Shown piece by piece: positions 1-64,000 of a DNA stretch of 64,000 nucleotides. The stretch is from Minisyncoccota bacterium (GTDB lineage: Bacteria; Patescibacteriota; Minisyncoccia; UBA6257; JAGOQP01), in the NCBI GenBank assembly GCA_041661795.1, contig JBAZTS010000005.1:768-64767 (forward strand). The letters run 5' to 3'. Under the pieces are notes generated by a model, which saw nothing but the letters and a program-made list of their open reading frames with translations, was not told where the DNA came from and ran no database searches. The translations under genes were made by a program, and so were the position numbers. Each line of letters opens with the position of its first letter. Within the stretch, counting starts at the first letter, position 1.

Positions 1-1480
1 GGGAGCTGGAACACCCGCTTTGGTTGTTTCCGGTTCAACTGATGCCAATGGAATCGTTAGATTCTCTAACGGTGCCGGATTGTTCAACGTTGTTCCAGGA
101 ACATCTGTCTATATAACTCTTAAAGGTGATATAGCTTCGGATGGATCCGGAACTTCCGGAGCCGACTCTGGAGACAATTTGAGATTGGCCTTGTACATGG
201 CTGATGACAACGCTGTTCAGGACTTTAGAGCTGTTGGTGTAAGTTCATCTACTGCTCTTCAGGAAGCTGACGCAGCTACCAACAACACAGCTCCAGTTAT
301 CGCTAACTTAACGTATGCCGATAACGTTGCTAACGTTGACGGAGACCTTGACACGACATTTATCGCCGGAAGCGATACTATTGTCAGAAAGTCAAAGCCA
401 ACTGTTGTCTCTACAGCCACAGCTGGAAGCTTGAGCAATGGTGATGACACCTTGCTTGAGTACACAATTTCAGCTACTGGTTCTGATGACGTAGCTCTAA
501 AGAGATTCCTCTTCAACTACTCTGAGACAGGAACATTCACATCTTCTGACTTCAAATTCTTTGAAGGAGGAACTGATATTACTTCTCAGGTAGCTATGAG
601 AGCTGTTGGTGACTTTGATGCCAACGGAGCTTTGGATCTGGAACAAGACATTGATTCAACCGCCGGTGACATTGGTGTTACCGATGGAGGATCAGCTATT
701 GTTTCCGTTACATTTACCAATGAGAAAACAATCTCATCTGGTTCATCCAAGACATTCTCTTTGAGATCATCTGTTGCCGGAGCCGGAACTGGAGAATCTA
801 TAACCGTTTCAATGAGAAACGACACGGTTAACGGAGGAACCACAACCGCTTTGGGACAGTACAGAGACATTGATGTCTACCTAAACACAACTGTAGCTTC
901 TGACTTCATCGCTGGTGGAGCCGAAGTTCTTAGTGTGTTCTGGGACTTGGACGGAGATGCCGTCTTAGATGCTACTGACCCATCAATCGTTGAAGCTGGA
1001 TTTACCGATGGTGCTAACCATGCAACCGCCGGTGAAGCTGTAAGCACATTCAACGTAAGATTAACTGGAGCTTGCGCCCTTCTTACAGAAGGAGGTGGAG
1101 CTGACACATTCACATTTGATGCTGATTGTGACGGAGCCATTGATGCAACGGAAATTACCATTGCAACTGGTGCTAGCGGTCTTACTAACGAGGCCTACAC
1201 GACCATCAACGACTTGAGACCTTACGCTTGGAGAACTGCAGCGGACACAGTGTTATATCTTGATATCAACGGCAGTGCTGCCGATGATGCCACAGAGCCA
1301 ACATTTGTTGTTCTTACAGGACACACAGCTACCGTTTCAGCTGGTGTTGTTTCCAATTTTGTTTGGTCTGATTCTTCAGCCGACATTCACGCTGAGAACA
1401 CTGCTGATTGGGCTAACGGATTTTACGTTAACGCTTCAGCTAGTTCGCTTTCTAACGTGAAGAAGACCTTGTCTTTGTAA
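1..1480 (+). CDS. Large Thr/Ser/Gly/Asp-rich surface (S-layer/adhesin-like) protein, 5'-partial. The reading frame stays open to base 2, so the gene begins upstream of the window.
   Basis: Open frame from the window edge to TAA at 1478-1480. Low-complexity T/S/G/D/A-rich composition with motifs shared with the 1717..4419 protein (TDANG, DGSG...GDN). A rho-independent terminator follows. Confidence 0.6.
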   Translation, partial: GAGTPALVVSGSTDANGIVRFSNGAGLFNVVPGTSVYITLKGDIASDGSGTSGADSGDNLRLALYMADDNAVQDFRAVGVSSSTALQEADAATNNTAPVIANLTYADNVANVDGDLDTTFIAGSDTIVRKSKPTVVSTATAGSLSNGDDTLLEYTISATGSDDVALKRFLFNYSETGTFTSSDFKFFEGGTDITSQVAMRAVGDFDANGALDLEQDIDSTAGDIGVTDGGSAIVSVTFTNEKTISSGSSKTFSLRSSVAGAGTGESITVSMRNDTVNGGTTTALGQYRDIDVYLNTTVASDFIAGGAEVLSVFWDLDGDAVLDATDPSIVEAGFTDGANHATAGEAVSTFNVRLTGACALLTEGGGADTFTFDADCDGAIDATEITIATGASGLTNEAYTTINDLRPYAWRTAADTVLYLDINGSAADDATEPTFVVLTGHTATVSAGVVSNFVWSDSSADIHAENTADWANGFYVNASASSLSNVKKTLSL

Positions 1481-1504
1481 ACTTGTTTACAGGACAGGCA
1501 AAAC

Positions 1505-1536
1505 AAAAACTCCCGTAAAAGGGAGTTTTTGTTTTT
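1505..1536 (+). terminator. Rho-independent terminator
   Basis: aaaaactccc-gtaaaa-gggagttttt hairpin followed by a T-run, directly after the stop at 1480. Confidence 0.7.
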
Positions 1537-1716
1537 ATAGGTTTATTTTAGTTATCCACATCTTTCTTAACTTATTTTGTTTTTTGATATATAATATATT
1601 AGTAAAAAATAGTTTTTAATCGCTATAAGGTCGATGCCTCTTTGGCTATGTTCACAGCGAATTTGAATTTGTCGGTATAAAATAAAAAATAATAAAATTA
1701 ATTAAAAAAAATAAAC

Positions 1717-4419
1717 ATGAATAAATTTGTGAAATTTTCAGTGATTGGATTTATGATTCTCTCCACTGTTATGTGGTCAGCCGGTTCGGCTTTAGCTGTA
1801 TCTGTTGCCGCCGATTATACCAAAAGTGATGTTGCCACTAATACGATTGGCAGAGGAGATACCAATCAATTGGTGTTTAACGTTCTTTTAAACAACGATG
1901 TTCTTATTACTAATGGAGGTGGCGCTTCTGCTGCTGGAAATGCATTGGCAACTTTACAAGGAGCCACTGATCCCGTTTTTGTTGACGGAACTTCAAATGA
2001 CAATACTTATACTAACGGTGAAGCAGTTATCTACAGCGTTGACTTAACATTGGATGCCGGAGTATTGAGCGGAGCCGGAACCGATGATGTTTTAATCGCC
2101 GGTCCGTCTGACATCAAACCTTTTCCGGGGACTATTTATGGTCTTGATGCCGCTGCCGGTACGGACGGTGCTTACGATGCTGGAGAAGTTCTTATTTCTT
2201 CCGCTGATACAAATTTGACTAACGGTGATACGGTTGTTACCGCCGGTACGGCTGATGTGACAAATTTTATTGCCGCTGATGGTGTGCTGTTTGATGATGG
2301 TGCTGAATGGGACACAGGAGTGGATGATATATTTATTGATTCTGATAATGACGATGTTTATACAACCGCAGCCGATGCATTGATTGATAATAATGCCGAT
2401 GCGCCAGCTGCTGGAGCGACAACATTTGATGTTGTGGCCGGTGATCAACTTTGTTCCGATAATGTCGTTGGAACTTTAGCGACCGCTGTCTGGACTTATA
2501 CAGGTACTGGAGCAGATGTTACCGCCTGTACAGCTGATGATGTAGTGGGAGTTCAGTATCTGGGGGCTGGAGCAGCCGCCGGTGGAACTTTGATAGTAAC
2601 CGGAATGAACTGGGCAAGCTCCGATAACGTTTTGGATGGAACAACTGATTTGTACGAAGAAAATGTTGCCGAGCAGTTAACTTACTCTGCCGCTGCTGAT
2701 GTTGTTCTTTATAATGGATCAGGAACTTTGACTTTAGGAGATGCCGGTTCAGAAATGGGTGTTGCTGATGCCGAAGCTATATATTTGGATTCTGATCATG
2801 GTGGTACCTACACCAATGGTGAACCAATAATTGATTTAGGAAATGGAAACACATTGGCTGATGATGGTAACTTGCCATTGACAGCAATATTTCTTGCTAA
2901 AGCCACAGGTAACTGGACGGTTGATTGGACAGCTATGAATGCTGCGGCCAATGCCGATATTGGATACGCTGACGCTAACCACGGTTCAACATTTACAACT
3001 GGAGAGGCGGTTATTATGGAAGCTGCCGCGGCTGCGACAGATACCATACTTGAAACAACCGATGTGGTGACTTCAACTGGTTCTGCGGAACTTACTCAAT
3101 TTCCCGTGGGTTTTAGATATGTAGATGTTGGAGGGGCTAACTATGATGCCGCTGATGACATTTATTTTGAGAACGACAACTCTGGAGATGGAGATAACGT
3201 TGTAGATAAACTTCAACTAAACTCTATTACGGTTCAAAATGCCGGAACAGCTGTTTTCAACGATATTGCCGCTGTTCATGTCTGGTGGGACGCTGACAGC
3301 AATGCAATATTAAACCCTGCCTTGGACACCGATTTAGGCGCAATGACAGCCGATGCTAATGGATGGGCGCTAACAGGACTTACTCAAGCTCTTTCGACTG
3401 TCAACTCAAGATTGTTTGTCTCGGTAAATATTTATTCAGGAGCCGATGACAACAGAACAATTCAGATGAGAATTCCATTAAGAGTTGATACTAATGCCAA
3501 TGGAACTTATGACGCAGGTGATGAAGGTATATTTGTTGATGCCGCTTCAACTGTTGGTGACGGACCAAGCGATGTCCTTATACTTAACGCCAACGTTCTT
3601 ACAATTGATGTTCCCTCTTCCACTGGTTCTGGTGGAGACATAACTCCTCCATCTGCTCCTTCTGGAGTCAGTGCGCAAGGAACTGGAATTGCAAATGAAA
3701 TAAAATTGATGTGGACTAATCCAACTGCTTCCGATTTTGCCGGAGTCAGAATATTCAGATCTCAGACATCGGGAAATGCGGTAGCTAATGGAGCTATTGT
3801 AGTGGTTTCCACAACTGGAACTTCTTACACGGATACCAACCTTGCTAATGGTTCTACTTACTACTATGTACTAAGGGCCATGGACAATACTGGTAACTAT
3901 ACAAATTCTTCTGAGGTTAGCGCTGTAGCCGGAAGTCAACCATCAAGCACAACGACTACAACTTCTACTTCTACAACTGCTACTTCAACAGAAGGAACGA
4001 CCACAACAACTACAACAACCACAACGACCACAACTCCTCCTGCTACGCTTCCTTATCCAAACCCAACCACTGTTGAACAGATGCAGGCAAATATTGTGGT
4101 TTTGCTGGCTCAATTATCTTTCTTACAGACCCAGTTAAGCCAAGCTCAGGAAACTGGAACGGAGCTTCCTCCTTTGGCTAAAGTTTATGTCTTTAACACT
4201 AACTTTGGACAAGGAATCAGAAGTGGCACGGTTACAAATCTCCAGACCATTTTGGCTCATGAGGGACTTTATGAGGTTAAATACATAACAGGATATTTTG
4301 GTCCTATTACCAAAGCAGCCGTTATAAAATTCCAAGCCAAATACGGAATTTCTCCTCAGAGCGGATATGTTGGACCTTTGACTAGAGCTCAACTTAGTAA
4401 GCTCTACGGAGGTAATTAA
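1717..4419 (+). CDS. Secreted cell-surface protein: signal peptide, T/D/G/A-rich repeat region, FN3-like module, poly-Thr linker and a C-terminal peptidoglycan-binding (PG_binding_1-like) domain
   Basis: N-terminal MNKFVKFSVIGFMILSTVMWSAGSALA signal-like sequence. FN3-like segment PPSAPSGV...LMWTNP...YYYVLRAMDNTGN. T-rich linker TTTTSTSTTATSTEGTTTTTTTTTTTTTPP. C-terminal ...TNLQTILAHEGLYEVKYITGYFGPITKAAVIKFQAKYGISPQSGYVGPLTRAQL matches the PG-binding fold. No SD, as is common in this genome. Confidence 0.75.
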   Translation: MNKFVKFSVIGFMILSTVMWSAGSALAVSVAADYTKSDVATNTIGRGDTNQLVFNVLLNNDVLITNGGGASAAGNALATLQGATDPVFVDGTSNDNTYTNGEAVIYSVDLTLDAGVLSGAGTDDVLIAGPSDIKPFPGTIYGLDAAAGTDGAYDAGEVLISSADTNLTNGDTVVTAGTADVTNFIAADGVLFDDGAEWDTGVDDIFIDSDNDDVYTTAADALIDNNADAPAAGATTFDVVAGDQLCSDNVVGTLATAVWTYTGTGADVTACTADDVVGVQYLGAGAAAGGTLIVTGMNWASSDNVLDGTTDLYEENVAEQLTYSAAADVVLYNGSGTLTLGDAGSEMGVADAEAIYLDSDHGGTYTNGEPIIDLGNGNTLADDGNLPLTAIFLAKATGNWTVDWTAMNAAANADIGYADANHGSTFTTGEAVIMEAAAAATDTILETTDVVTSTGSAELTQFPVGFRYVDVGGANYDAADDIYFENDNSGDGDNVVDKLQLNSITVQNAGTAVFNDIAAVHVWWDADSNAILNPALDTDLGAMTADANGWALTGLTQALSTVNSRLFVSVNIYSGADDNRTIQMRIPLRVDTNANGTYDAGDEGIFVDAASTVGDGPSDVLILNANVLTIDVPSSTGSGGDITPPSAPSGVSAQGTGIANEIKLMWTNPTASDFAGVRIFRSQTSGNAVANGAIVVVSTTGTSYTDTNLANGSTYYYVLRAMDNTGNYTNSSEVSAVAGSQPSSTTTTTSTSTTATSTEGTTTTTTTTTTTTTPPATLPYPNPTTVEQMQANIVVLLAQLSFLQTQLSQAQETGTELPPLAKVYVFNTNFGQGIRSGTVTNLQTILAHEGLYEVKYITGYFGPITKAAVIKFQAKYGISPQSGYVGPLTRAQLSKLYGGN

Positions 4420-27214: not shown

Positions 27215-27301
27215 GGAAGGTTGGCAGAGTGGTCTAACGCGCCGCACTTGAAATGCGGTATCCCGGAAACGGGATCGGAGGTTCGAATCCTCCACCTTCC
27301 G
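27215..27301 (+). tRNA. tRNA-Ser (anticodon UGA)
   Basis: 7-bp acceptor ggaaggt/accttcc, anticodon stem-loop ccgca-cttgaaa-tgcgg (anticodon tga), long variable arm atcccggaaacgggat, T-arm ggagg-ttcgaat-cctcc, discriminator G. Confidence 0.85.
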
Positions 27302-55366: not shown

Positions 55367-55441
55367 CGGACCGAACGGGATTTGAACCCGTGATCTTCTC
55401 CTTGACAAGGAGACATGTTAACCAGGCTACACCATCGGTCC
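55367..55441 (-). tRNA. tRNA-Asp (anticodon GUC)
   Basis: Reverse complement GGACCGATGGTGTAGCCTGGTTAACATGTCTCCTTGTCAAGGAGAAGATCACGGGTTCAAATCCCGTTCGGTCCG. Anticodon loop TTGTCAA, T-arm ACGGG-TTCAAAT-CCCGT, 7-bp acceptor. Confidence 0.85.
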
Positions 55442-55702: not shown

Positions 55703-55774
55703 GCCGACGTAGCTCAATGGTGGAGCAGGGCTTTCATAAGGCCAAGGTTACAGGTTCGACTCCTGTCGTCGGTA
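55703..55774 (+). tRNA. tRNA with anticodon CAU (elongator Met or lysidine-modified Ile2)
   Basis: GCCGACGTAGCTCAATGGTGGAGCAGGGCTTTCATAAGGCCAAGGTTACAGGTTCGACTCCTGTCGTCGGTA. Canonical D-arm (GCTC/GAGC, GG in loop), anticodon loop TTCATAA, T-arm ACAGG-TTCGACT-CCTGT, and a 7-bp acceptor with G1-U72. Confidence 0.75.
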
Positions 55775-55870
55775 CTAGTAACTTTATTCATTTATTATCG
55801 TTTTTATACTTAACGGGACATCCTTTAAATAGCTCGTTTATTAGCGAGCTTCCTGTTGTTTTGCAAAAAT

Positions 55871-57670
55871 ATGTCATCCACCGTAAAAATATCAAAAAAC
55901 AAGTTCTCTAAAAAAGTATTTTTTGAGGGACTTAAAATAGTTTTACAGGAAATAAAACCCCACAAAAAGATGGTATTTTTTTTGGTTGCCCTGAGTATGG
56001 TTGGAGCGACTCTTGAAGCGTTTGTTCCTTTAATGGCGGGAAAAATTTTTGACGCTATAATTAAAATTTCCCAAAGTCCGGTTCTGGCCCTAACTTCCAT
56101 ATTTATAATTATCGCCGGTTGGTTTGTTTTAAGATTTTTAAGCGATACCATTAGTTGGAGAATAAATCACGACAACCAAAAATTAGCCGTTACTCTTGAG
56201 GCCGAATATATGGCCAATGGTTTTGGAAAACTTTTTGAACTCCCTATCGCTGTTCATAAAGACAAAAAACACGGCGAAATAGGGGACAGAATCATGAGAG
56301 CGGCCGGAAAATTATCTGAAATAATTAACAGGGTCTCCATTAACCTTCTTCCTAGTTTTCTTAGTATAATTGTGGCTTTGGTGATAACTTCCTTTATCAA
56401 CTGGCAATTGACGGTAATTTTATTGACGGCGATTATTTTGTATGCAGGAGTTTTAGTAAAATCGGTTCCTTCTTTGGCTGACGTGCAGTCCAAAATGCAC
56501 AAGGCCTACAACCGGGCTTTTGGCAAGGCCTGGGATTCTCTGGAAAATATTCAGGAAATAAAACAAGTGGCTACAGAAAAATACGAACAAAATAGGATAA
56601 GAGAAAATTTTCTGGGTAAAGCCGCTCCTTTGTGGGTTAGGATGATGAATATTTTTATGAAATTGAATTTTTTCCAGCGGTTTCTTATCTCTACATCACA
56701 ACTCTTGATTTTTATTGTTTCGGTATTTTTTGTAAGAAACGGAATGATTACTCCGGGACAATTAGTGGCCTTTAATGGATACGCGGCTATGATATTTGGA
56801 CCGTTTGTTATTTTAGGGCAGAACTGGCAAATAATTCAAAACGGATTTATAGCTCTGATAAGATCCAAAAGAATTCTTGAACTGACTAAGGAAAATTATG
56901 CTCCCGACAAATCAACTCCTTTTAAAAAAATAGAAGGGAATGTTTCATTTGAAAAAGTTTCCTTTGCTTATAAATCTTTGGAAAACAAAATTCTAAAAGA
57001 TGTATCGTTTAATGTTCTACCCGGAGAGAGAATAGCTATTGTCGGTGAATCTGGGGTGGGTAAAACTACTCTGATTAATCTTCTTTTGGGATTGTATTTT
57101 GCTCAGAAAGGAAAAATTTCTGTGGACGGACAAGACATCAGAAAAGTAGATTTAAAATCTTATCGTTCCAGAATAGGAGTGGTTTCCCAGGAGCCGACTC
57201 TTTTTAACGATACCATAGAGGGCAATATCAAATACGGAAATTTTATAAAACCTTTAAAAGAAATAATTGAGGCCGCCAAAGAAGCTCATGCTGATGAATT
57301 TATAGAAAAGTTTTCCAAGAAATACAAACAGATGGTCGGTTGGAAGGGGATAAAACTTTCTATCGGTCAAAAACAAAGAATAGCTTTAGCCAGAGCTTTT
57401 TTAAGAAATCCTGACATTCTGATTTTAGACGAGCCAACATCGGCTTTGGATGCCAGATCAGAACAGTTGATAAAGGAGTCATTGGAAAAATTAATGAAAG
57501 GAAGAACTACGTTTATTATCGCTCATCGCCTGAGCACAATAAGAGAAGCGGATAAAATATTGGTTTTTGAAGGAGGAAAATTGGTTGAGAACGGCAAGCA
57601 CGATGATTTGCTAAAAATTGATGACGGTGTTTACAAAAAATTCTACGAATTACAGAATAAATCCAGTTAA
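55871..57670 (+). CDS. ABC exporter, fused permease/ATPase (MsbA/type I exporter family)
   Basis: 6-TM domain plus NBD with Walker A GESGVGKTTL, signature LSIGQKQRIALARAF, Walker B ILILDEPTSALD. Start set at the internal Met (MSSTVK) because the upstream extension overlaps the tRNA. Confidence 0.85.
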   Translation: MSSTVKISKNKFSKKVFFEGLKIVLQEIKPHKKMVFFLVALSMVGATLEAFVPLMAGKIFDAIIKISQSPVLALTSIFIIIAGWFVLRFLSDTISWRINHDNQKLAVTLEAEYMANGFGKLFELPIAVHKDKKHGEIGDRIMRAAGKLSEIINRVSINLLPSFLSIIVALVITSFINWQLTVILLTAIILYAGVLVKSVPSLADVQSKMHKAYNRAFGKAWDSLENIQEIKQVATEKYEQNRIRENFLGKAAPLWVRMMNIFMKLNFFQRFLISTSQLLIFIVSVFFVRNGMITPGQLVAFNGYAAMIFGPFVILGQNWQIIQNGFIALIRSKRILELTKENYAPDKSTPFKKIEGNVSFEKVSFAYKSLENKILKDVSFNVLPGERIAIVGESGVGKTTLINLLLGLYFAQKGKISVDGQDIRKVDLKSYRSRIGVVSQEPTLFNDTIEGNIKYGNFIKPLKEIIEAAKEAHADEFIEKFSKKYKQMVGWKGIKLSIGQKQRIALARAFLRNPDILILDEPTSALDARSEQLIKESLEKLMKGRTTFIIAHRLSTIREADKILVFEGGKLVENGKHDDLLKIDDGVYKKFYELQNKSS

Positions 57671-58188: not shown

Positions 58189-58217
58189 TTGTAAAAAAAC
58201 TACGAGTATGGTATAAT
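58189..58217 (+). promoter_or_regulatory. Sigma-70-like promoter (TTGTAA-17 nt-TATAAT) at the AT-rich side of the compositional boundary, pointing into GC-rich block A
   Basis: ttgtaa aaaaactacgagtatgg tataat. The downstream ~160-nt leader is GC-rich with an 8-bp hairpin (tttttcgc-taac-gcgaaaaa, 58255..58274) and the direct repeat GCGAGACGAA x2. Confidence 0.4.
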
Positions 58218-58379
58218 TGATTCAGAAACTGGGAGATTGGCTTCCAGTAGGCCCTTTTTCGCTAACGCGAAAAAGAGGTTAACTGTTCTTTAACATACCT
58301 AACTACAAACGACGAAAGTCGAGCGAGACGAAATCCGCCTACGCTTGAGAAAGCTACGGCGAGACGAAGGGAGGCGGTC

Positions 58380-59594
58380 ATGAACCGCAATCGCAAGAGC
58401 GTGTGGATCGTTACTGTCATGGCGGTCGCGATCGCCATGATCAACATTAACCTGGTGGAGGCAGTTACGCCTCTCACCAGACAGTGGATTCCTTCTGTGG
58501 GATCCGGCTCGGGTATCAACTCGGCGCAGTGGCGGACGACGGTGTGGATTCACAACCCGTCGTCGGTTTCCACCGCCAACGTGGAAGTTTCTTTCTTCGA
58601 GAGGGGATCTTCCATCGGCGTTCCTCTGGTGGTTGTTACTCTCCAGGTTCTTTCTGGGGAGGCGATGACCCACCAGAACTTTATGTCGGATGTCCTGAGA
58701 GTATCAAAGTACGGATCTCTCAGGTTCGTTTCCGACATCCCTGTGTCGGTGCGTTCGCGCATCTACAATGCCAACAGCCCCACTCCTTCGGGAGCTGGGA
58801 CTGCTGGTCAAGCGTTTGACGGCATCAACGAGAACGATGCCGTCGGAGTTGGCCAAAGCGTGACGCTCCAGTCGGTCCCCACAACTTCCGATTTCCGTTT
58901 CAACTTCGGATTCATAGAAGTGGGCGGAACTGAGACGACTGTCCGGGCCCAGAGGATCAATTCCCTGGGACAGCCCGTCGGTGGTGACCGGGTCTACCTG
59001 GCTGGCGAGTATCAGGCCAACCAATTCCCGGTGAGCGATCTTTCCGTTACCACTACCGACATCGGCAGTAGTAACGATCAGATCAAGATGACCGTCACCC
59101 AAGGGGGACGGATCATCGCCTTTGGGTCTCTTGTGGACAACAAGACGGGGGACCCTACCACGGTGACACAGGAGTCACCGCTGGTCCGACCGGGAGTGTA
59201 CAGCTATACCATCCGCGACTCCCAGAACGGCGCCGTGAAGGGGACTCTGATCCTCAACGTGGCTATTGTTGAGGGAGTTCCTACGATGGTGAAGATGAGA
59301 ACCATATACTTGTGCGAGTGCGGACGGAATTGGTACTTCTACATCGACAACAGTGGCACGCCATTCTCTTTACCTATGACAAGCGGAGTGGGGGCTACTG
59401 AAGTAAGCGTCGGTCCCCCTTATGTTGAATTCTGGCTTGGGTGGGTACCGACAGTAAACCCAGATGGCACGGGGGGAGGATACGCCGATTATATGATCAA
59501 GAGCACCAATGCTCCTTGGTCTGAGTGTAATCTACTAACCACCACTCATGATCTTGTGGGAGGGTGGAGTGAACCTCTTCCGGCTGAGCAGTAG
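58380..59594 (+). CDS. Secreted protein of unknown function encoded in GC-rich block A
   Basis: SD gaagggaggcggtc-ATG and signal peptide MNRNRKSVWIVTVMAVAIAMININLVEA. 404 aa, GC-rich codon usage unlike the host genome, no recognisable family, C-terminal Cys cluster (CECGRNWYFY...C). Confidence 0.6.
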   Translation: MNRNRKSVWIVTVMAVAIAMININLVEAVTPLTRQWIPSVGSGSGINSAQWRTTVWIHNPSSVSTANVEVSFFERGSSIGVPLVVVTLQVLSGEAMTHQNFMSDVLRVSKYGSLRFVSDIPVSVRSRIYNANSPTPSGAGTAGQAFDGINENDAVGVGQSVTLQSVPTTSDFRFNFGFIEVGGTETTVRAQRINSLGQPVGGDRVYLAGEYQANQFPVSDLSVTTTDIGSSNDQIKMTVTQGGRIIAFGSLVDNKTGDPTTVTQESPLVRPGVYSYTIRDSQNGAVKGTLILNVAIVEGVPTMVKMRTIYLCECGRNWYFYIDNSGTPFSLPMTSGVGATEVSVGPPYVEFWLGWVPTVNPDGTGGGYADYMIKSTNAPWSECNLLTTTHDLVGGWSEPLPAEQ

Positions 59595-59778
59595 TGTAGT
59601 TAGGTAACAAGTTCTCAAAAGGGGTGTCTCGCAAGAGCACCCCTTGAGCTTTTTATATTGTTTTAATTCTCTAAATGTGATTTAATATATAATAGAAACC
59701 AAGAGATTGTCTCTTGGTATAGCACATTAACAAGTCGTGTGATCTGGGTGAGACATCCCCGGAAAGGAGGTGAGAAGA

Positions 59779-59925
59779 ATGGGGAACGAAAAGCGCCAGA
59801 AGTGGGCGGAGGATCGCCAGAAGCGTTACGAGCCCAAGGGACCCAAGACCGACAAGGGAGGCGGTCGCGAAAGGAATGTTGGTCATCCCAAGGGGGAGGA
59901 ACACAGTCGCGTCAGCAAGAAGTAG
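59779..59925 (+). CDS. Small hydrophilic basic protein (48 aa), possibly KGG/stress-protein-like
   Basis: Strong SD ggaaaggaggtgagaagaATG and translation MGNEKRQKWAEDRQKRYEPKGPKTDKGGGRERNVGHPKGEEHSRVSKK. Followed by a ggggcga...tcgcccc hairpin. Not in the ORF track because it is under 60 aa. Preferred over the antisense hydrophobic ORF 59671..59943. Confidence 0.4.
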   Translation: MGNEKRQKWAEDRQKRYEPKGPKTDKGGGRERNVGHPKGEEHSRVSKK

Positions 59926-59932
59926 CACCATG

Positions 59933-59954
59933 GGGGCGAGCAAATGTTCGCCCC
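59933..59954 (+). terminator. GC-rich hairpin (ggggcga-gcaaatgt-tcgcccc) at the end of GC-rich block A
   Basis: A perfect 7-bp GC stem just after the stop of the small ORF, followed by an AT-rich stretch. Confidence 0.45.
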
Positions 59955-59991
59955 TGCTATTATTATATGGTATATTATTGGAAATACTTAT

Positions 59992-61248
59992 ATGAACGTT
60001 AAAGTAAAAAAATTAAAAAATGGATTTAAAATTATTTATTTGCCTTTTGACAACTTTTCTTCAACCGTCATTAGACTTCTTGTTCCGGCGGGTTCATTTT
60101 TGGACGGCAAACGACATGGATTGGCACACATGGTGGAGCATATGGCAACCAAATGGATTGAAAATAGGATACACGACATTACAAGCACTGTATGGGCCGC
60201 CGATCATCTTGTCACTCATTTTGAATCCGGAATAAATCGTCAATACGCATATTTTAGCTTTGATGTTCACCACAAAGACGCCAAACGCGTAGTTAATATA
60301 TTAAGAGATATGCTTATTTTAGACAAAATTTCATTGGGTGATTTAACGGGAGAAAAAAATATTATACTTTCCGAAATTCGCGACTCAATTGATTCTTCCT
60401 CATACAACTTTGAAAAAGACGCAAGTATATCACTGGGAGACATATTAGGAGTGGCGCACCCCGTGCTTGGATATTCTTCTTCTGTAAGACGTTTTACTAA
60501 CAAGATCATAAATAACTTTTTTGTTCATTATTATCAGAATACTAGCGCGATTCTTGTGGTTTCGGGTAAGGTGACATCTGACATACAAAAAGAAATAGAA
60601 ACATCTTTTAATAATGCCCATCTAACACCATCCACATCTCACTTTGTTGGTCTCAGAACTCTTCTTAAGCGATCCCGATTTCATATTGTGAATAATTTTA
60701 CGCGTCAATCTTATTGCACAATATTTTATCCTCTTCCTGTAAAAAATTTAAACGAGTTACTTGTGTGGAAATTTGTCGGTTTTGTGTTATATGATTACCT
60801 ACGTTACGTTTTAAGAGAAAATGGATATATTTCATATTCTACCGATGTTGACGTGGAGGATCTTTGGCAGCGCCCAGTATTAGCGGTAAGATTTTCTGTT
60901 GAGGTTAATAAAATGACGCACGCTTTACAACTCTGGCAAGATGCTTTATCTAAATTCTCGGATGTATTTACACAACACGAATATATAATCGCTCTCAGGG
61001 CTTATATTCAGGAAATAGAGCTTGATAAAGATTACCCAATTACACAGGCAAAAAATTTTGGTCATTACGCAATGCTATTTGGCCTAAATTCGGTACAAAA
61101 CATTAAGCGGGAGAACTATAAAAAATTGTTTTCTCAAAAAAGAGTTATAAAAAATATTCACACAATAATGCAAAATCCACACTTTCTTCATATTGTGGCA
61201 TCAAAAAAACGACTAGACGAGAAGAAATTACGCAAAGATTTTATATAA
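59992..61248 (+). CDS. M16-family (insulinase/pitrilysin-like) zinc metallopeptidase
   Basis: Inverted zinc-binding motif HxxEH in GLAHMVEHMATK near the N-terminus, typical of M16. The ORF-track start (59944) overlaps the upstream hairpin, so the internal MNVKVKKL is used. Confidence 0.6.
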   Translation: MNVKVKKLKNGFKIIYLPFDNFSSTVIRLLVPAGSFLDGKRHGLAHMVEHMATKWIENRIHDITSTVWAADHLVTHFESGINRQYAYFSFDVHHKDAKRVVNILRDMLILDKISLGDLTGEKNIILSEIRDSIDSSSYNFEKDASISLGDILGVAHPVLGYSSSVRRFTNKIINNFFVHYYQNTSAILVVSGKVTSDIQKEIETSFNNAHLTPSTSHFVGLRTLLKRSRFHIVNNFTRQSYCTIFYPLPVKNLNELLVWKFVGFVLYDYLRYVLRENGYISYSTDVDVEDLWQRPVLAVRFSVEVNKMTHALQLWQDALSKFSDVFTQHEYIIALRAYIQEIELDKDYPITQAKNFGHYAMLFGLNSVQNIKRENYKKLFSQKRVIKNIHTIMQNPHFLHIVASKKRLDEKKLRKDFI

Positions 61249-61285
61249 ATATAGAGACAATAAAAGTTTGGTTGTCGTTTACTAT

Positions 61286-61462
61286 ATGAAATTATTTTTA
61301 ATTCGTCATGGAGAAACCGAAGAATCTAAAAAAGGCATATTGCTCGGACATCTTTCAGGGCGTTTAACTGTTAGAGGAAAAAGGGAAATGTTGAATGTTG
61401 CTAAGAAAATAGAAAAACTAAATCCGGATATAATATTTTCAAGTGATTTAAAAAGAGCTTAG
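61286..61462 (+). pseudogene. Truncated histidine-phosphatase (phosphoglycerate mutase-like) N-terminal fragment
   Basis: MKLFLIRHGETEESKKGIL... carries the catalytic RHG motif of the PGM/histidine phosphatase family but stops after ~58 aa. Intact members are ~200 aa. Confidence 0.5.
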
Positions 61463-61501: not shown

Positions 61502-62221
61502 ATGATAAGATTGCGTTTTTACGTAAATAAATCGCTAGATAAAAGAATGGTCAAAGAATTTATCAGTGTCCAAGCTGGAGGAGTAAATTTTGGTCAAAAT
61601 ATTATCAAATTACATCCCCGATTAAGATTTGATAGGTTAAACAAAAGATCACAGCCTAAAATCATTGATGATTATTTTGATGTTTACTATAAAATTCACA
61701 AAGAAAAAATAAAACGGAAAATTAACGAAATAAGAAGAGAATGGATTAAATGGGAGGAAAATTTCGTTTCCATTACAGAAAAATACTTTGGAGGTTTTAA
61801 ATTTTCTAAAGGAAGATATATAGCATATCCGTCAATCATAAATTGCAACCCACGTTTTCTTGATTCAAAAACATTTCAATTTTTCTATAAAAAAGAAATT
61901 CCGGATGCCGTTCATACTATAGCCCACGAACTTCTTCACTTTATATTCTTTGATTTTGTAAATAAAAAACTTCCTAAAATAAAACATGAACTTTCTGACG
62001 ATGAGTTATGGGACCTATCAGAAATATTTAATGTTGTTTTGTTGAGAATGCTATATAAAAACATTATAAATCATAGATATATTCATCCCTATCCTGATCA
62101 TAAAAAATATTTACGTGATATAATACAAACTTTTCTAAAATCCACCAATATAAAAGAATTTATTATAAAGAGTGCCAGCGTCATCAGACAAAGAAAAACA
62201 GAAATTAGAAGAGGGAGCTAA
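61502..62221 (+). CDS. Hypothetical protein with an HExxH motif (putative metalloprotease-like)
   Basis: HTIAHELLHFIFFDF. 239 aa with no other recognisable motifs. Convergent with the rSAM gene. Confidence 0.4.
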   Translation: MIRLRFYVNKSLDKRMVKEFISVQAGGVNFGQNIIKLHPRLRFDRLNKRSQPKIIDDYFDVYYKIHKEKIKRKINEIRREWIKWEENFVSITEKYFGGFKFSKGRYIAYPSIINCNPRFLDSKTFQFFYKKEIPDAVHTIAHELLHFIFFDFVNKKLPKIKHELSDDELWDLSEIFNVVLLRMLYKNIINHRYIHPYPDHKKYLRDIIQTFLKSTNIKEFIIKSASVIRQRKTEIRRGS

Positions 62222-62229
62222 AAGCTCCC
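62213..62229. terminator. Bidirectional stem-loop (gggagct-aaa-agctccc) between convergent genes, overlapping both stop codons
   Basis: A perfect 7-bp inverted repeat at the junction of the AT-rich segment and GC-rich block B. Confidence 0.55.
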
Positions 62230-62231
62230 TC

Positions 62232-63614
62232 TTAAGATCTGTTCTCTGCCACCCATTTCTCCTTCTGTTTCTCCCAAAGATCCTGAATGAGAAAAAGAGT
62301 GGCTGATTTCGCGTGCGCGCAGAAGCGCGTGTCCAGCGCTTCCAATGATCCAGTTAAGCGATATGCGTTGTAGGGACACCCACCTCCGCAGTTACCGAGT
62401 GCTAGACACCCGAGACATTCTTGGTTGCTCAACGGTGAGCGCCGTCTCCAGAGTTTCCAGAAAGGGTGCATCTCGGGTTGAAAGGTCTCCAGGGATTCTT
62501 CTACAAAGAACTCCTTTTGCCCGCAGAATGCTTGACACACTCCGATCTTTCCGTCTGGGCTTACGACCACCTGAAGACCACAACCTCCGCAGTCACTCAG
62601 AACTGGCGTCTTGTCTATAAAGTTGCGAACTCGCCTCATCATCCTATCTTCATAGACGCCTCTCTCACGAGCGATTTTAAAGCACTCAATAAGTTCTTGA
62701 GCAATGGTTTCTGCATAGTCATGGTTTCCATGACCATCTCCATCGTTTTCAATGAGAATATTGAATCCCATCCCCTTAGCACCAAGTTCATCGGTGAGCC
62801 AGGTTACTATCTCCCTCATGTGTGAGAGATTGTGACGATCGACAGTGACGCAAACTCCAGTGTGCACACCCATCTGCTGAGCGAGACGGTAGGAACGAAT
62901 TACATCATCAAACGTTCCTTCGCCGGTAGAGTAAACCCGCATTTGATCGTGAATCTCTTTCGGCCCGTCTATGGAGATAGCAACTACTGCGCCGCTCTCC
63001 TTACACGAAGTCAAAATCTCTTCGTCAAGAAGAATACCGTTGGTATTCAGGGTAACTCCCATGCTTTGTGGAAGTACTTCCGCTTCCTTGTTCTCCTTGA
63101 TGTACTGCAGAACTTCAAGGAGGACCTTACGATTCAGCGTTGGTTCACCTCCGTAGATGACTATCTGCTGGTCGGTATGTCCCTTGGCAATACTCCTCTT
63201 CACACACCTAGCAAAGAAATCGATAGCAGCATGCGCCGTCTCCGACTTCATTTGTGAAAAGCGGTAGTGAGGAGGCATATTGGCCAAGAAATAGCAGTAC
63301 CGACAACGGATATTGCAAGCATCAGAAAGAAGTAGATAAAGGATGTTGATGGATGGATCGTCTAACGCTTTCTGATACTCCCGATAATGTTCACATCCGT
63401 CATCATTCTCTGCTAGGAGAAAACCCAATGACTGGAGCGATTCCAGGAGTTGCTCTGACTCAGCGTCAGATGACGTGAACCAACCATCTTCTTGACACTG
63501 TTTCACGGTCGATGCTTTGATAAACACTGTTTCCAAGTCAAGGCTGTGATACAATGCCACGTACTCCTCATCTACCGGAATGATGTACAGGAAAGGACTT
63601 TGTTGTAGTCTCAC
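62232..63614 (-). CDS. Radical SAM enzyme with a C-terminal SPASM domain: a RiPP maturase of the SCIFF/ranthipeptide (or anSME-like) type
   Basis: GTG start preceded by SD AAGGAGGT. CxxxCxxC motif in DACNIRCRYCYF, glycine-rich SAM motif IYGGEPTL, and a C-terminal Cys cluster CGGCGLQVVVSPDGKIGVCQAFCG...CLGCLALGNCGGGCPYNA (twitch/SPASM auxiliary clusters). Roughly 50% GC. Confidence 0.8.
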   Translation of the reverse strand: MRLQQSPFLYIIPVDEEYVALYHSLDLETVFIKASTVKQCQEDGWFTSSDAESEQLLESLQSLGFLLAENDDGCEHYREYQKALDDPSINILYLLLSDACNIRCRYCYFLANMPPHYRFSQMKSETAHAAIDFFARCVKRSIAKGHTDQQIVIYGGEPTLNRKVLLEVLQYIKENKEAEVLPQSMGVTLNTNGILLDEEILTSCKESGAVVAISIDGPKEIHDQMRVYSTGEGTFDDVIRSYRLAQQMGVHTGVCVTVDRHNLSHMREIVTWLTDELGAKGMGFNILIENDGDGHGNHDYAETIAQELIECFKIARERGVYEDRMMRRVRNFIDKTPVLSDCGGCGLQVVVSPDGKIGVCQAFCGQKEFFVEESLETFQPEMHPFWKLWRRRSPLSNQECLGCLALGNCGGGCPYNAYRLTGSLEALDTRFCAHAKSATLFLIQDLWEKQKEKWVAENRS

Positions 63615-63641
63615 TTTAAACCTCCTTTCTTTTTAGAAAGT

Positions 63642-63669
63642 TGGGGGTGGCATAACTCAACCACCCCCA
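63642..63669 (-). promoter_or_regulatory. Intercistronic GC hairpin (9-bp stem tgggggtgg/ccaccccca) between the precursor peptide gene and the rSAM gene; candidate attenuator or partial terminator
   Basis: Perfect 9-bp stem with a 10-nt loop, located 20 nt downstream of the precursor stop and ahead of the maturase SD. Confidence 0.55.
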
Positions 63670-63688
63670 TTCCTAATTTCTGTTTCAC

Positions 63689-63841
63689 CTACTTGCTCGA
63701 CTTGCACGGCGTGCAACGGCATGAGCTACAAGATGTGCAGTCGCACGGGCGGGAATTGACCGCTTCGTTGAGATCGATCCTCCCGACGATCTTCGAGCGT
63801 GTTTCCGCCGCAGGAACTACGAGAACATTGGCTTTACTCAT
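63689..63841 (-). CDS. RiPP precursor peptide with six cysteines in the C-terminal 14 residues (SCIFF/ranthipeptide-like)
   Basis: SD GGAGGTG 8 nt before ATG. Translation MSKANVLVVPAAETRSKIVGRIDLNEAVNSRPCDCTSCSSCRCTPCKSSK (50 aa). The ORF track extends to an upstream GTG. Immediately upstream of a radical SAM/SPASM gene on the same strand. Confidence 0.7.
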   Translation of the reverse strand: MSKANVLVVPAAETRSKIVGRIDLNEAVNSRPCDCTSCSSCRCTPCKSSK

Positions 63842-63901
63842 TCTCATCACCTCCTCTCTGGGGAAAGAATCACCCGACCTCACAACTTGTTAATGTGCTA
63901 T

Positions 63902-63954
63902 ATCCAGAGCCAATCTCTGGATTTCTAAGATTATATTAAATCATATTTTGTCAA
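63902..63954 (-). promoter_or_regulatory. Putative promoter region for the precursor-maturase operon with a perfect 8-bp palindrome in the leader
   Basis: On the minus strand: TTGACA (63949-54), a 13-nt spacer, TATAAT (63930-35), then the inverted repeat atccagag-ccaat-ctctggat (63902..63922) between the -10 and the SD. The short spacer keeps confidence low. Confidence 0.35.
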
Positions 63955-64000
63955 AAACAACAATAAGAATTTCTTGTATTACTAGTAGTTCCGTTTACCC

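Follow-up and report, generated by a model that had tools for sequence, protein, structure and literature searches.

Specialised metabolism is usually said to be absent from Patescibacteria, and the locus analysed here raises the question of what a short cysteine-dense open reading frame (ORF) and a radical S-adenosylmethionine (radical-SAM) enzyme are doing side by side in the tiny genome of a Paceibacterota bacterium (Patescibacteria). The two genes are read on the minus strand of a 64 kb stretch of DNA (the window), and an original prediction, made from the letters alone, took them for a two-gene operon that makes a SCIFF/ranthipeptide-like ribosomally made peptide with post-translational modifications (RiPP). 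The conserved unit is instead three genes in about 2.4 kb, which encode the precursor peptide, a radical-SAM/SPASM maturase and an HExxH protein. In the interpretation that we consider probable, these genes form a RiPP cassette whose subfamily is uncurated, mainly Patescibacterial and related to FibroRumin, and in which the maturase would form thioethers in the peptide and the HExxH protein would remove its leader.

That the host is a Patescibacterium agrees with NCBI, where the neighbouring protein is listed under Candidatus Paceibacterota. One survey found zero biosynthetic gene clusters in its Patescibacteria metagenome-assembled genomes (PMC11613949). The literature on ranthipeptides in Patescibacteria, on RiPPs in the candidate phyla radiation and on FibroRumin likewise yielded no publication that describes the cassette, as was anticipated when the system was called unreported from this group.

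The maturase and its precursor peptide

The maturase gene (62232..63614, minus strand) runs from a GTG at 63614 to a stop at 62232, is preceded by a Shine-Dalgarno sequence (SD) GGAGG (63621-63625) 6 nt before the start, and encodes a 460-aa protein with an N-terminal domain resembling a RiPP recognition element (RRE). Both cysteine clusters that had been predicted for this protein were located. The radical-SAM motif, C100-x3-C104-x2-C107, has all three Cys invariant in 19 homologues with identity down to 38%, and the seven-Cys SPASM pattern is complete (C345-x9-G355-x4-C360; C400-x2-C403-x5-C409-x3-C413; C432), with six of the seven Cys invariant in the same homologues and C409 substituted in one. 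The Pfam Radical_SAM model (PF04055) matches the maturase at 70.8 bits (cutoff 29.5); the Pfam SPASM model gave no match, and that domain is assigned from the motif and from the alignment of the maturase to SPASM enzymes along its full length.

Comparison with curated NCBIfam families places the enzyme closest to the FibroRumin maturase model TIGR04136 (273.7 bits, cutoff 400), with an alignment that is full-length (model positions 13-454 of 458), ahead of the models for PapB (149.4 bits, cutoff 340), CefB (136.2, cutoff 600), the SCIFF maturase TIGR03974 (129.5, cutoff 425), QhpD (121.9, cutoff 453) and anSME (119.2, cutoff 349). A Campylobacter homologue scores 633.8 bits on TIGR04136 whereas Patescibacterial relatives score 240-290, so by this measure the window maturase is in a sister subfamily, outside FibroRumin proper. 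More than 85 homologues share 52-72% identity with it, and the few that carry a source name are from Patescibacteria.

A profile of the 19 homologues, compared with the PDB, found CteB (5WGG) at E = 1e-40, in an alignment of maturase residues 12-442 with CteB residues 19-443 that includes the RRE-like region. An AlphaFold (AF2) model of the maturase, with a predicted local distance difference test score (pLDDT) of 87.8, gave Foldseek template modelling (TM) scores of 0.70 to CteB, 0.73 to TigE, and 0.61 to both anSME and ChlB. The N-terminal 85 residues, modelled at pLDDT above 90 as four strands and three helices that align to the CteB N-terminal region, are consistent with an RRE. By sequence and fold together, CteB and PapB (freyrasin) are the closest characterised enzymes, and the SCIFF, CteB and PapB systems share with the cassette both a six-Cys C-terminal core and an architecture of RRE or RRE-like, radical-SAM and twin-cluster SPASM domains.

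The precursor gene (63689..63841, minus strand) extends from an ATG at 63841 to a stop at 63689, has an SD GGAGG at 63850-63854, 8 nt 5' of the ATG, and encodes 50 aa (MSKANVLVVPAAETRSKIVGRIDLNEAVNSRPCDCTSCSSCRCTPCKSSK). Its leader contains the motif VLVVP...KIVGRIDL and its core is RPCDCTSCSSCRCTPCKSSK; the C-terminal part, CDCTSCSSCRCTPCKSSK, has six Cys within 14 residues and then KSSK. The original description of a six-Cys, 50-aa ORF with a good SD is thus accurate apart from the peptide's end, which is KSSK and not literally ...TPC. Gene callers missed this small ORF. It is the only plausible Cys-dense one in all six frames of the 64 kb.

Relatives were sought in a collection of one genome for each of 185,579 species, which yielded 80 loci encoding maturase relatives, and in metagenomes, where 72 stretches were recovered with the back-translated precursor core and about 60 of these proved to be true precursors. 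Homologous precursors that differ from one another number 49, each adjoining a maturase and/or an HExxH gene; conservation of the pair in related genomes had been named as a check on the prediction. Where the contig allows, nearly all the metagenome precursors adjoin both genes. The peptide is also kept beside the enzyme at loci found through the enzyme alone (L004-L016 and L024). A short leader/core precursor gene conserved beside a modifying enzyme is what defines a RiPP cassette, and that arrangement is found here.

About 43 of the 49 precursors have the core C[DN]C[ST][AS]CxSCRCTPCK, and the spacing from the leader (I/V)P to the first Cys is constant at 22 residues across precursors. Close loci in the genome collection number only eight (enzyme 58-72% identity), and the adjoining peptide in them ends ...ARPCDCTAC(G/S)SCRCTPCK; in a second clade (enzyme about 42% identity) the peptide is CSCTACSSCRCTPC[KRH] plus a short follower. 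The SSK tail is the sole oddity of the window peptide among these relatives. In the eight enzyme-found loci, a set without ascertainment on the peptide, the ratio of nonsynonymous to synonymous change (pN/pS) is 0.46 for the leader and 0.07 for the core, where pS is 0.88. Strong purifying selection acts on the core, which is far more constrained than the leader, the opposite of the pattern in most antimicrobial RiPPs. Its near-invariance speaks for a target or role of the molecule that is conserved and against an antibiotic that evolves fast.

These data bear directly on the proposed SCIFF identity. A canonical SCIFF/ranthipeptide system would account for the six Cys in a C-terminal core and for a maturase homologous to CteB, but the enzyme scores 129.5 bits against the 425 of TIGR03974, and the window peptide has no NCBIfam or Pfam match at E <= 1, with the precursor models TIGR03973 (SCIFF) and TIGR04135 (FibroRumin) included. 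The Cys spacing, which had rightly been noted as not that of SCIFF, is tighter and lacks the Cys-x3-Asp repeat, the leader is another one, the FibroRumin and PapB models both score higher than TIGR03974, and the cassette has an obligatory HExxH partner. Such a partner is not known to be part of SCIFF loci. We consider a canonical SCIFF system very improbable and abandon that identification; the lower score (149.4 versus 340), Cys spacing, leader and extra gene separate the cassette from PapB systems as well.

FibroRumin (TIGR04136/TIGR04135) is a closer comparison, being the best-scoring curated family for the enzyme and also having a short Cys-dense core beside a radical-SAM/SPASM enzyme with an RRE or RRE-like domain. 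In addition, some peptides of the cassette's relatives weakly match TIGR04135 (14-36 bits against a cutoff of 45; 17 for L010 and 35.9 for a Campylobacter peptide). The differences are that the enzyme scores 273.7 against a cutoff of 400, that the window peptide is unmatched, and that the cassette has its own core motif, C[DN]C[ST][AS]CxSCRCTPCK, together with a conserved HExxH gene. By the curated tests, which are tests of sequence, the cassette is outside the SCIFF, PapB, QhpD, anSME and FibroRumin families.

The HExxH partner and the proposed chemistry

The third gene (61502..62221, plus strand) encodes an HExxH zincin-like protein of 239 aa, has 28% GC, is convergent with the maturase gene, and was overlooked when the locus was read as a two-gene operon. 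A homologue adjoins the maturase in 29 genome loci and is present in 31 of the 33 long loci that carry the precursor; conservation of the neighbourhood is limited to the precursor, maturase and HExxH genes. In the commonest gene order the precursor is followed by the HExxH gene with the maturase convergent, in a second order (the window, L008-L010, L085, L092 and others) the precursor is followed by the maturase with the HExxH gene convergent, and in the second clade all three genes are co-directional. Pairwise identities of the maturase and the HExxH protein are correlated (r = 0.88, 276 pairs), so the two have been inherited together. The cassette is recurrent across Patescibacteria, though patchy.

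Two nearby genes were considered as further members, an M16 peptidase (59944-61248) and an ABC exporter (55856-57670), and both were rejected, as neither is conserved beside the cassette elsewhere. A His_Phos_1 (histidine phosphatase) ORF of 64 aa (61268-61462, plus strand) stops 40 nt short of the HExxH gene and appears to be a truncated gene, possibly cut when the cassette was inserted.

The 239-aa protein is favoured as a putative leader peptidase. At 23-37% identity its only invariant residues are H142, E143, H146 and E174, a tetrad that places a Glu 28 residues downstream of HExxH and is the signature of gluzincins, in which HExxH and a downstream Glu lie on a zincin fold, as they do here. 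Foldseek matched peptidases, at weak E-values. Comparison of the protein and 33 diverse homologues with Pfam and NCBIfam gave nothing beyond sub-threshold zincin-like matches, a family profile matched PDB sequences at chance level only, and membership in a peptidase family was not found by sequence. The family is sizeable (723 clusters at 50% identity in a library of 1.8 billion proteins), and its 185 close homologues carry no Pfam domain or functional name from any source.

HExxH proteins of RiPP systems include both zincin leader peptidases and oxygenases (ChlH, BpmH, PflC), and the partner could be an Fe(II)/alpha-ketoglutarate-dependent oxygenase of the latter type, with hydroxylation or oxidative cleavage of the peptide as its reaction. 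An O2-dependent step would fit poorly with the oxygen sensitivity of the radical-SAM enzyme beside it and with the anaerobic, fermentative metabolism of most Patescibacteria. HExxH oxygenases have a zincin-like fold, co-occur with radical-SAM RiPP maturases and were formerly mis-annotated as peptidases (PMC12636437). The cassette's maturase resembles the radical-SAM domain of ChlB, and the HExxH family has a nearly invariant Arg118 that could bind a carboxylate. On the other side, neither the window protein nor any of the 33 homologues matches TIGR04267/IPR026337 even at E <= 1, and the invariant set is exactly HExxH plus the Glu 28 residues downstream. The partner family, small in protein length (about 230 aa) and with its invariant downstream Glu as in gluzincins, lies outside both IPR026337/TIGR04267 and the peptidase families. 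An oxygenase is a serious rival that seems to us the less likely, and leader removal is retained as the preferred function.

Since its nearest characterised relatives (CteB, PapB and QhpD) all make Cys thioethers, thioether chemistry is proposed for the maturase, in keeping with the original pairing of a Cys-rich precursor with a RiPP maturase. The precursor would be transcribed from its own promoter, and a GC hairpin past its stop codon would probably allow only part of the transcripts to reach the maturase gene. By homology to CteB, the leader motif (hydrophobic x3-P, then I/V-x-G/E-x-I) would be bound by the RRE-like domain of the maturase, whose radical-SAM cluster would cleave SAM to give a 5'-deoxyadenosyl radical that takes hydrogen from a core residue, after which a Cys thiolate at a SPASM auxiliary cluster may close the thioether. 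Repeated rounds would cross-link the 15-residue core C-D-C-T-S-C-S-S-C-R-C-T-P-C-K, and the convergent HExxH...E zincin would then most likely remove the leader. The cassette would in this way work like a ranthipeptide/sactipeptide system, with an RRE-guided radical-SAM/SPASM enzyme acting on a Cys-rich core.

Several points count against this proposal. No curated family cutoff is reached by either the enzyme or the peptide, and the function rests on distant homology; a search of the literature found no experimental characterisation of FibroRumin, the nearest family; and no exporter or immunity gene was found to be conserved with the cassette. The Asp after Cys1 of the core is Asn in several homologues, and the core has few classic acceptor residues. 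Two radical-SAM/SPASM relatives of similar fold carry out other chemistry, ChlB making cyclophanes and anSME formylglycine. A third, TigE, makes cyclopropylglycine (PMC10878394).

That relatives at comparable TM scores perform unrelated reactions (TigE 0.73, anSME 0.61, ChlB 0.61; PMC10878394) speaks for an alternative in which the maturase modifies the peptide without thioethers, either by some other link or modification or with six Cys that serve mainly to bind an iron-sulfur cluster or a metal; the product would then be neither a ranthipeptide nor a sactipeptide but a peptide that binds metal or resembles a cofactor. It would also suit this alternative that a core pN/pS of 0.07 across enzymes 58-72% identical is less usual for antimicrobials than for peptides with a cofactor or housekeeping role, that an exporter is not conserved with the cassette, and that the nearest curated family, FibroRumin, is uncharacterised. 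It is opposed by the characterised top sequence matches (PapB, the SCIFF maturase CteB, and QhpD), all of which use Cys for thioethers, and by the absence from the core of Val, Trp, Tyr and His, which known C-C-forming relatives use. We judge a product without thioethers to be a minority prospect, and a thioether-forming cassette remains the interpretation that we prefer.

Base composition, expression signals and flanking genes

The two minus-strand genes had been described as lying in a GC-rich island, with an assembly chimera offered as one way in which the prediction could fail. The contrast itself is real, as the maturase gene has 48% GC and the precursor gene 56% in a window of 36%, and GC at third codon positions (GC3) is 0.50 and 0.67, respectively, whereas the HExxH gene, which is the most AT-rich one in the vicinity, has 0.22 and the remaining neighbours have 0.23-0.34. 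No simple foreign block is seen, in that the third gene is AT-rich and 53 of 54 related loci are alike in having a maturase GC3 above that of the adjacent HExxH gene (means 0.45 versus 0.30). This contrast persists although the two proteins co-diverge (r = 0.88), and because it recurs within a co-inherited cassette the GC-rich maturase and precursor genes are not simply a fresh foreign insert. Over 9.9-11.8 kb, GC/AT junctions included, the window agrees at 100% identity with contigs from two different sequencing runs (SRR6484324 and SRR18595301), so the block is not an assembly chimera.

The same observations bear on the possibility that a non-RiPP radical-SAM enzyme (anSME- or QhpD-like) stands beside a spurious ORF, or that the GC-rich block is chimeric or a freshly acquired island. 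GC3 values of 0.50 and 0.67, far above the 0.22-0.34 of the neighbours, could be taken in its favour, as could the small ORF having been skipped by gene callers. The anSME and QhpD models, however, give the lowest of the relevant scores, far under their cutoffs, and the peptide is under strong purifying selection in independently found loci. The identical contigs from the two runs, the family-wide GC contrast in 53 of 54 loci, and the co-divergence of the maturase and HExxH genes all oppose this possibility too, which we regard as the least probable of those considered. A scan of IMG/VR viral contigs for the HExxH gene, in which the maturase itself was not included, found no relative, and on this result carriage by phage was rejected.

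The expression signals at the locus begin with a TATAAT box (63930..63935, minus strand) that, by its sequence, may be the -10-like element of the precursor promoter. The -35 element is not canonical, as TTGACA is only 13 nt upstream of the box, and a consensus promoter scan did not list the site; a TATAAT box also precedes a 48-aa ORF at 59779. Just after the -10 box lies the leader palindrome CCAGAGATTGGCTCTGG (63904..63920, minus strand), with a predicted 8-bp stem, which would form a 5' stem-loop in the transcript or else be an operator. It had been foreseen, as had a bidirectional terminator (62209..62233, 11-bp stem) that overlaps the stop codon of the maturase gene as well as that of the HExxH gene convergent with it; its z scores are -4.9 (plus strand) and -4.4 (minus strand). 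The 5' untranslated region (5'UTR) also contains the box TATAGCACATTAACAAGT (63885..63902, minus strand), an 18-nt sequence with exact matches at 59718 (plus) and 63902 (minus) that is absent from all related loci. A paralogous palindrome, CCAAGAGATTGTCTCTTGG, at 59698-59718 has both arms changed with pairing kept, and the palindrome occurs in two full copies and one partial copy, all within this genome.

The precursor promoter and 5'UTR (~120 nt) are duplicated, at ~80% identity as read from the alignment, before the unrelated 48-aa basic ORF (59779-59925). As these sequences occur only in this genome, their being a family-wide regulatory element was rejected. The duplicate unit (59670-59925, plus strand) encodes a very basic, Cys-free peptide from a GC-rich ORF (MGNEKRQKWAEDRQKRYEPKGPK...; GC3 0.73). 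Its promoter, 5' hairpin, 18-nt box and SD are nearly those of the precursor gene, and a terminator comes after it (59931-59956); no homologue of the 48-aa ORF was found in any fetched locus.

Between precursor and maturase lies the predicted GC hairpin (63642..63669, minus strand), with a stem of 10 bp and not the 9 bp first given, which may serve as an attenuator or as a terminator of partial strength. Folding of the 101-nt spacer between the two genes gives -28.7 kcal/mol (z = -3.0), and a small second stem next to the hairpin abuts the maturase SD (63621-63625). A strong hairpin of other sequence, often accompanied by a U-run, is present in every relative in which the precursor is followed by the maturase (L008-L010, L085, L092, L106, L138, L150 and L151), which supports a role as an attenuator that may set a high precursor:enzyme ratio. 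Rfam, applied to the whole window at the gathering threshold and to 57.5-64 kb at E <= 1, returned three tRNAs and chance-level matches, and it accounts for neither the leader palindrome nor the hairpins.

Relatives in which the precursor is followed by the HExxH gene (L004, L006, L007 and about 27 metagenome loci) have a conserved spacer motif, AAAGACCYRAGCATGTCTATAAACTGCTC, also written AGACCYRAGCATGTCTATAAACTGCTC, and then a U-run; this motif occurs in the relatives only, outside the window (for example L110 128-154 and L145 276-302). It is compatible with an H-type pseudoknot (AGAC/GTCT and GAGCA/TGCTC), with 92% of cells paired versus 23-63% in slid controls and five pairs with double changes, and it is much more conserved than synonymous sites in the flanking genes. 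A further hairpin spans the precursor stop codon in these relatives, and the spacer motif has no Rfam match.

Other features of the window were recorded alongside the cassette. The contigs from both runs (Logan contigs) end 26 nt past the window end at a palindrome, CCCCCACACTAAT-AGA-ATTAGTGTGGGGG (L001 1-29), which lies just upstream of the precursor promoter and probably both serves the next gene as a terminator and marks a break in the assembly. A GC-rich unit at 58189-59594 (plus strand; 55% GC, GC3 0.65) encodes a 404-aa signal-peptide protein (ORF at 58380), has, at 58189-58217, a good sigma-70-like promoter with a related partial palindrome, CTGGGAGATTGGCTTCCAG, after it, and finds distant homologues only, at most 38% identical, of which the two source-named ones are from Acidobacteriota. 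The 404-aa protein is probably a separate horizontal acquisition, and the two other GC-rich units near the cassette both look like separate acquisitions. The first 4.4 kb of the window (20-4419, plus strand), moderately GC-rich, encode two very large proteins that are rich in Ala, Thr, Gly and Asp, one of 486 aa that is truncated and one of 900 aa. With a poly-Thr linker and, at its N terminus, a signal peptide, the 900-aa protein resembles a surface protein; amino-acid content and not an island lies behind the base composition here. The tRNA genes are at 27215-27301 (plus), 55367-55441 (minus) and 55703-55774 (plus), and two of the three flank the start of the region that contains the ABC exporter and the GC-rich units.

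Implications for peptide chemistry in Patescibacteria

What is new in this locus is the precursor family, a maturase subfamily below all curated cutoffs, and an unclassified HExxH partner, while the logic of a radical-SAM/SPASM enzyme acting on a Cys-rich core is known. It is also possible, though we hold this idea tentatively and think it unlikely as a whole, that the cassette represents a RiPP class specific to ultra-small Patescibacteria in which the near-invariant Cys6 15-mer, the radical-SAM/SPASM clade and the HExxH family are all new, the product is a conserved, non-antibiotic molecule with a redox, metal-binding or host-interaction role, and the GC contrast and pseudoknot-like RNA reflect dedicated regulation.

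The cassette is compact, recurrent and cloneable, and with three genes in 2.4 kb, a near-invariant core, no family cutoff reached, and an unannotated partner family of 723 clusters, heterologous reconstitution should be straightforward. In this way, its analysis could reveal new radical-SAM peptide chemistry together with a new leader-processing or tailoring enzyme, and could yield a molecule that is relevant to the interaction between an episymbiont and its host.

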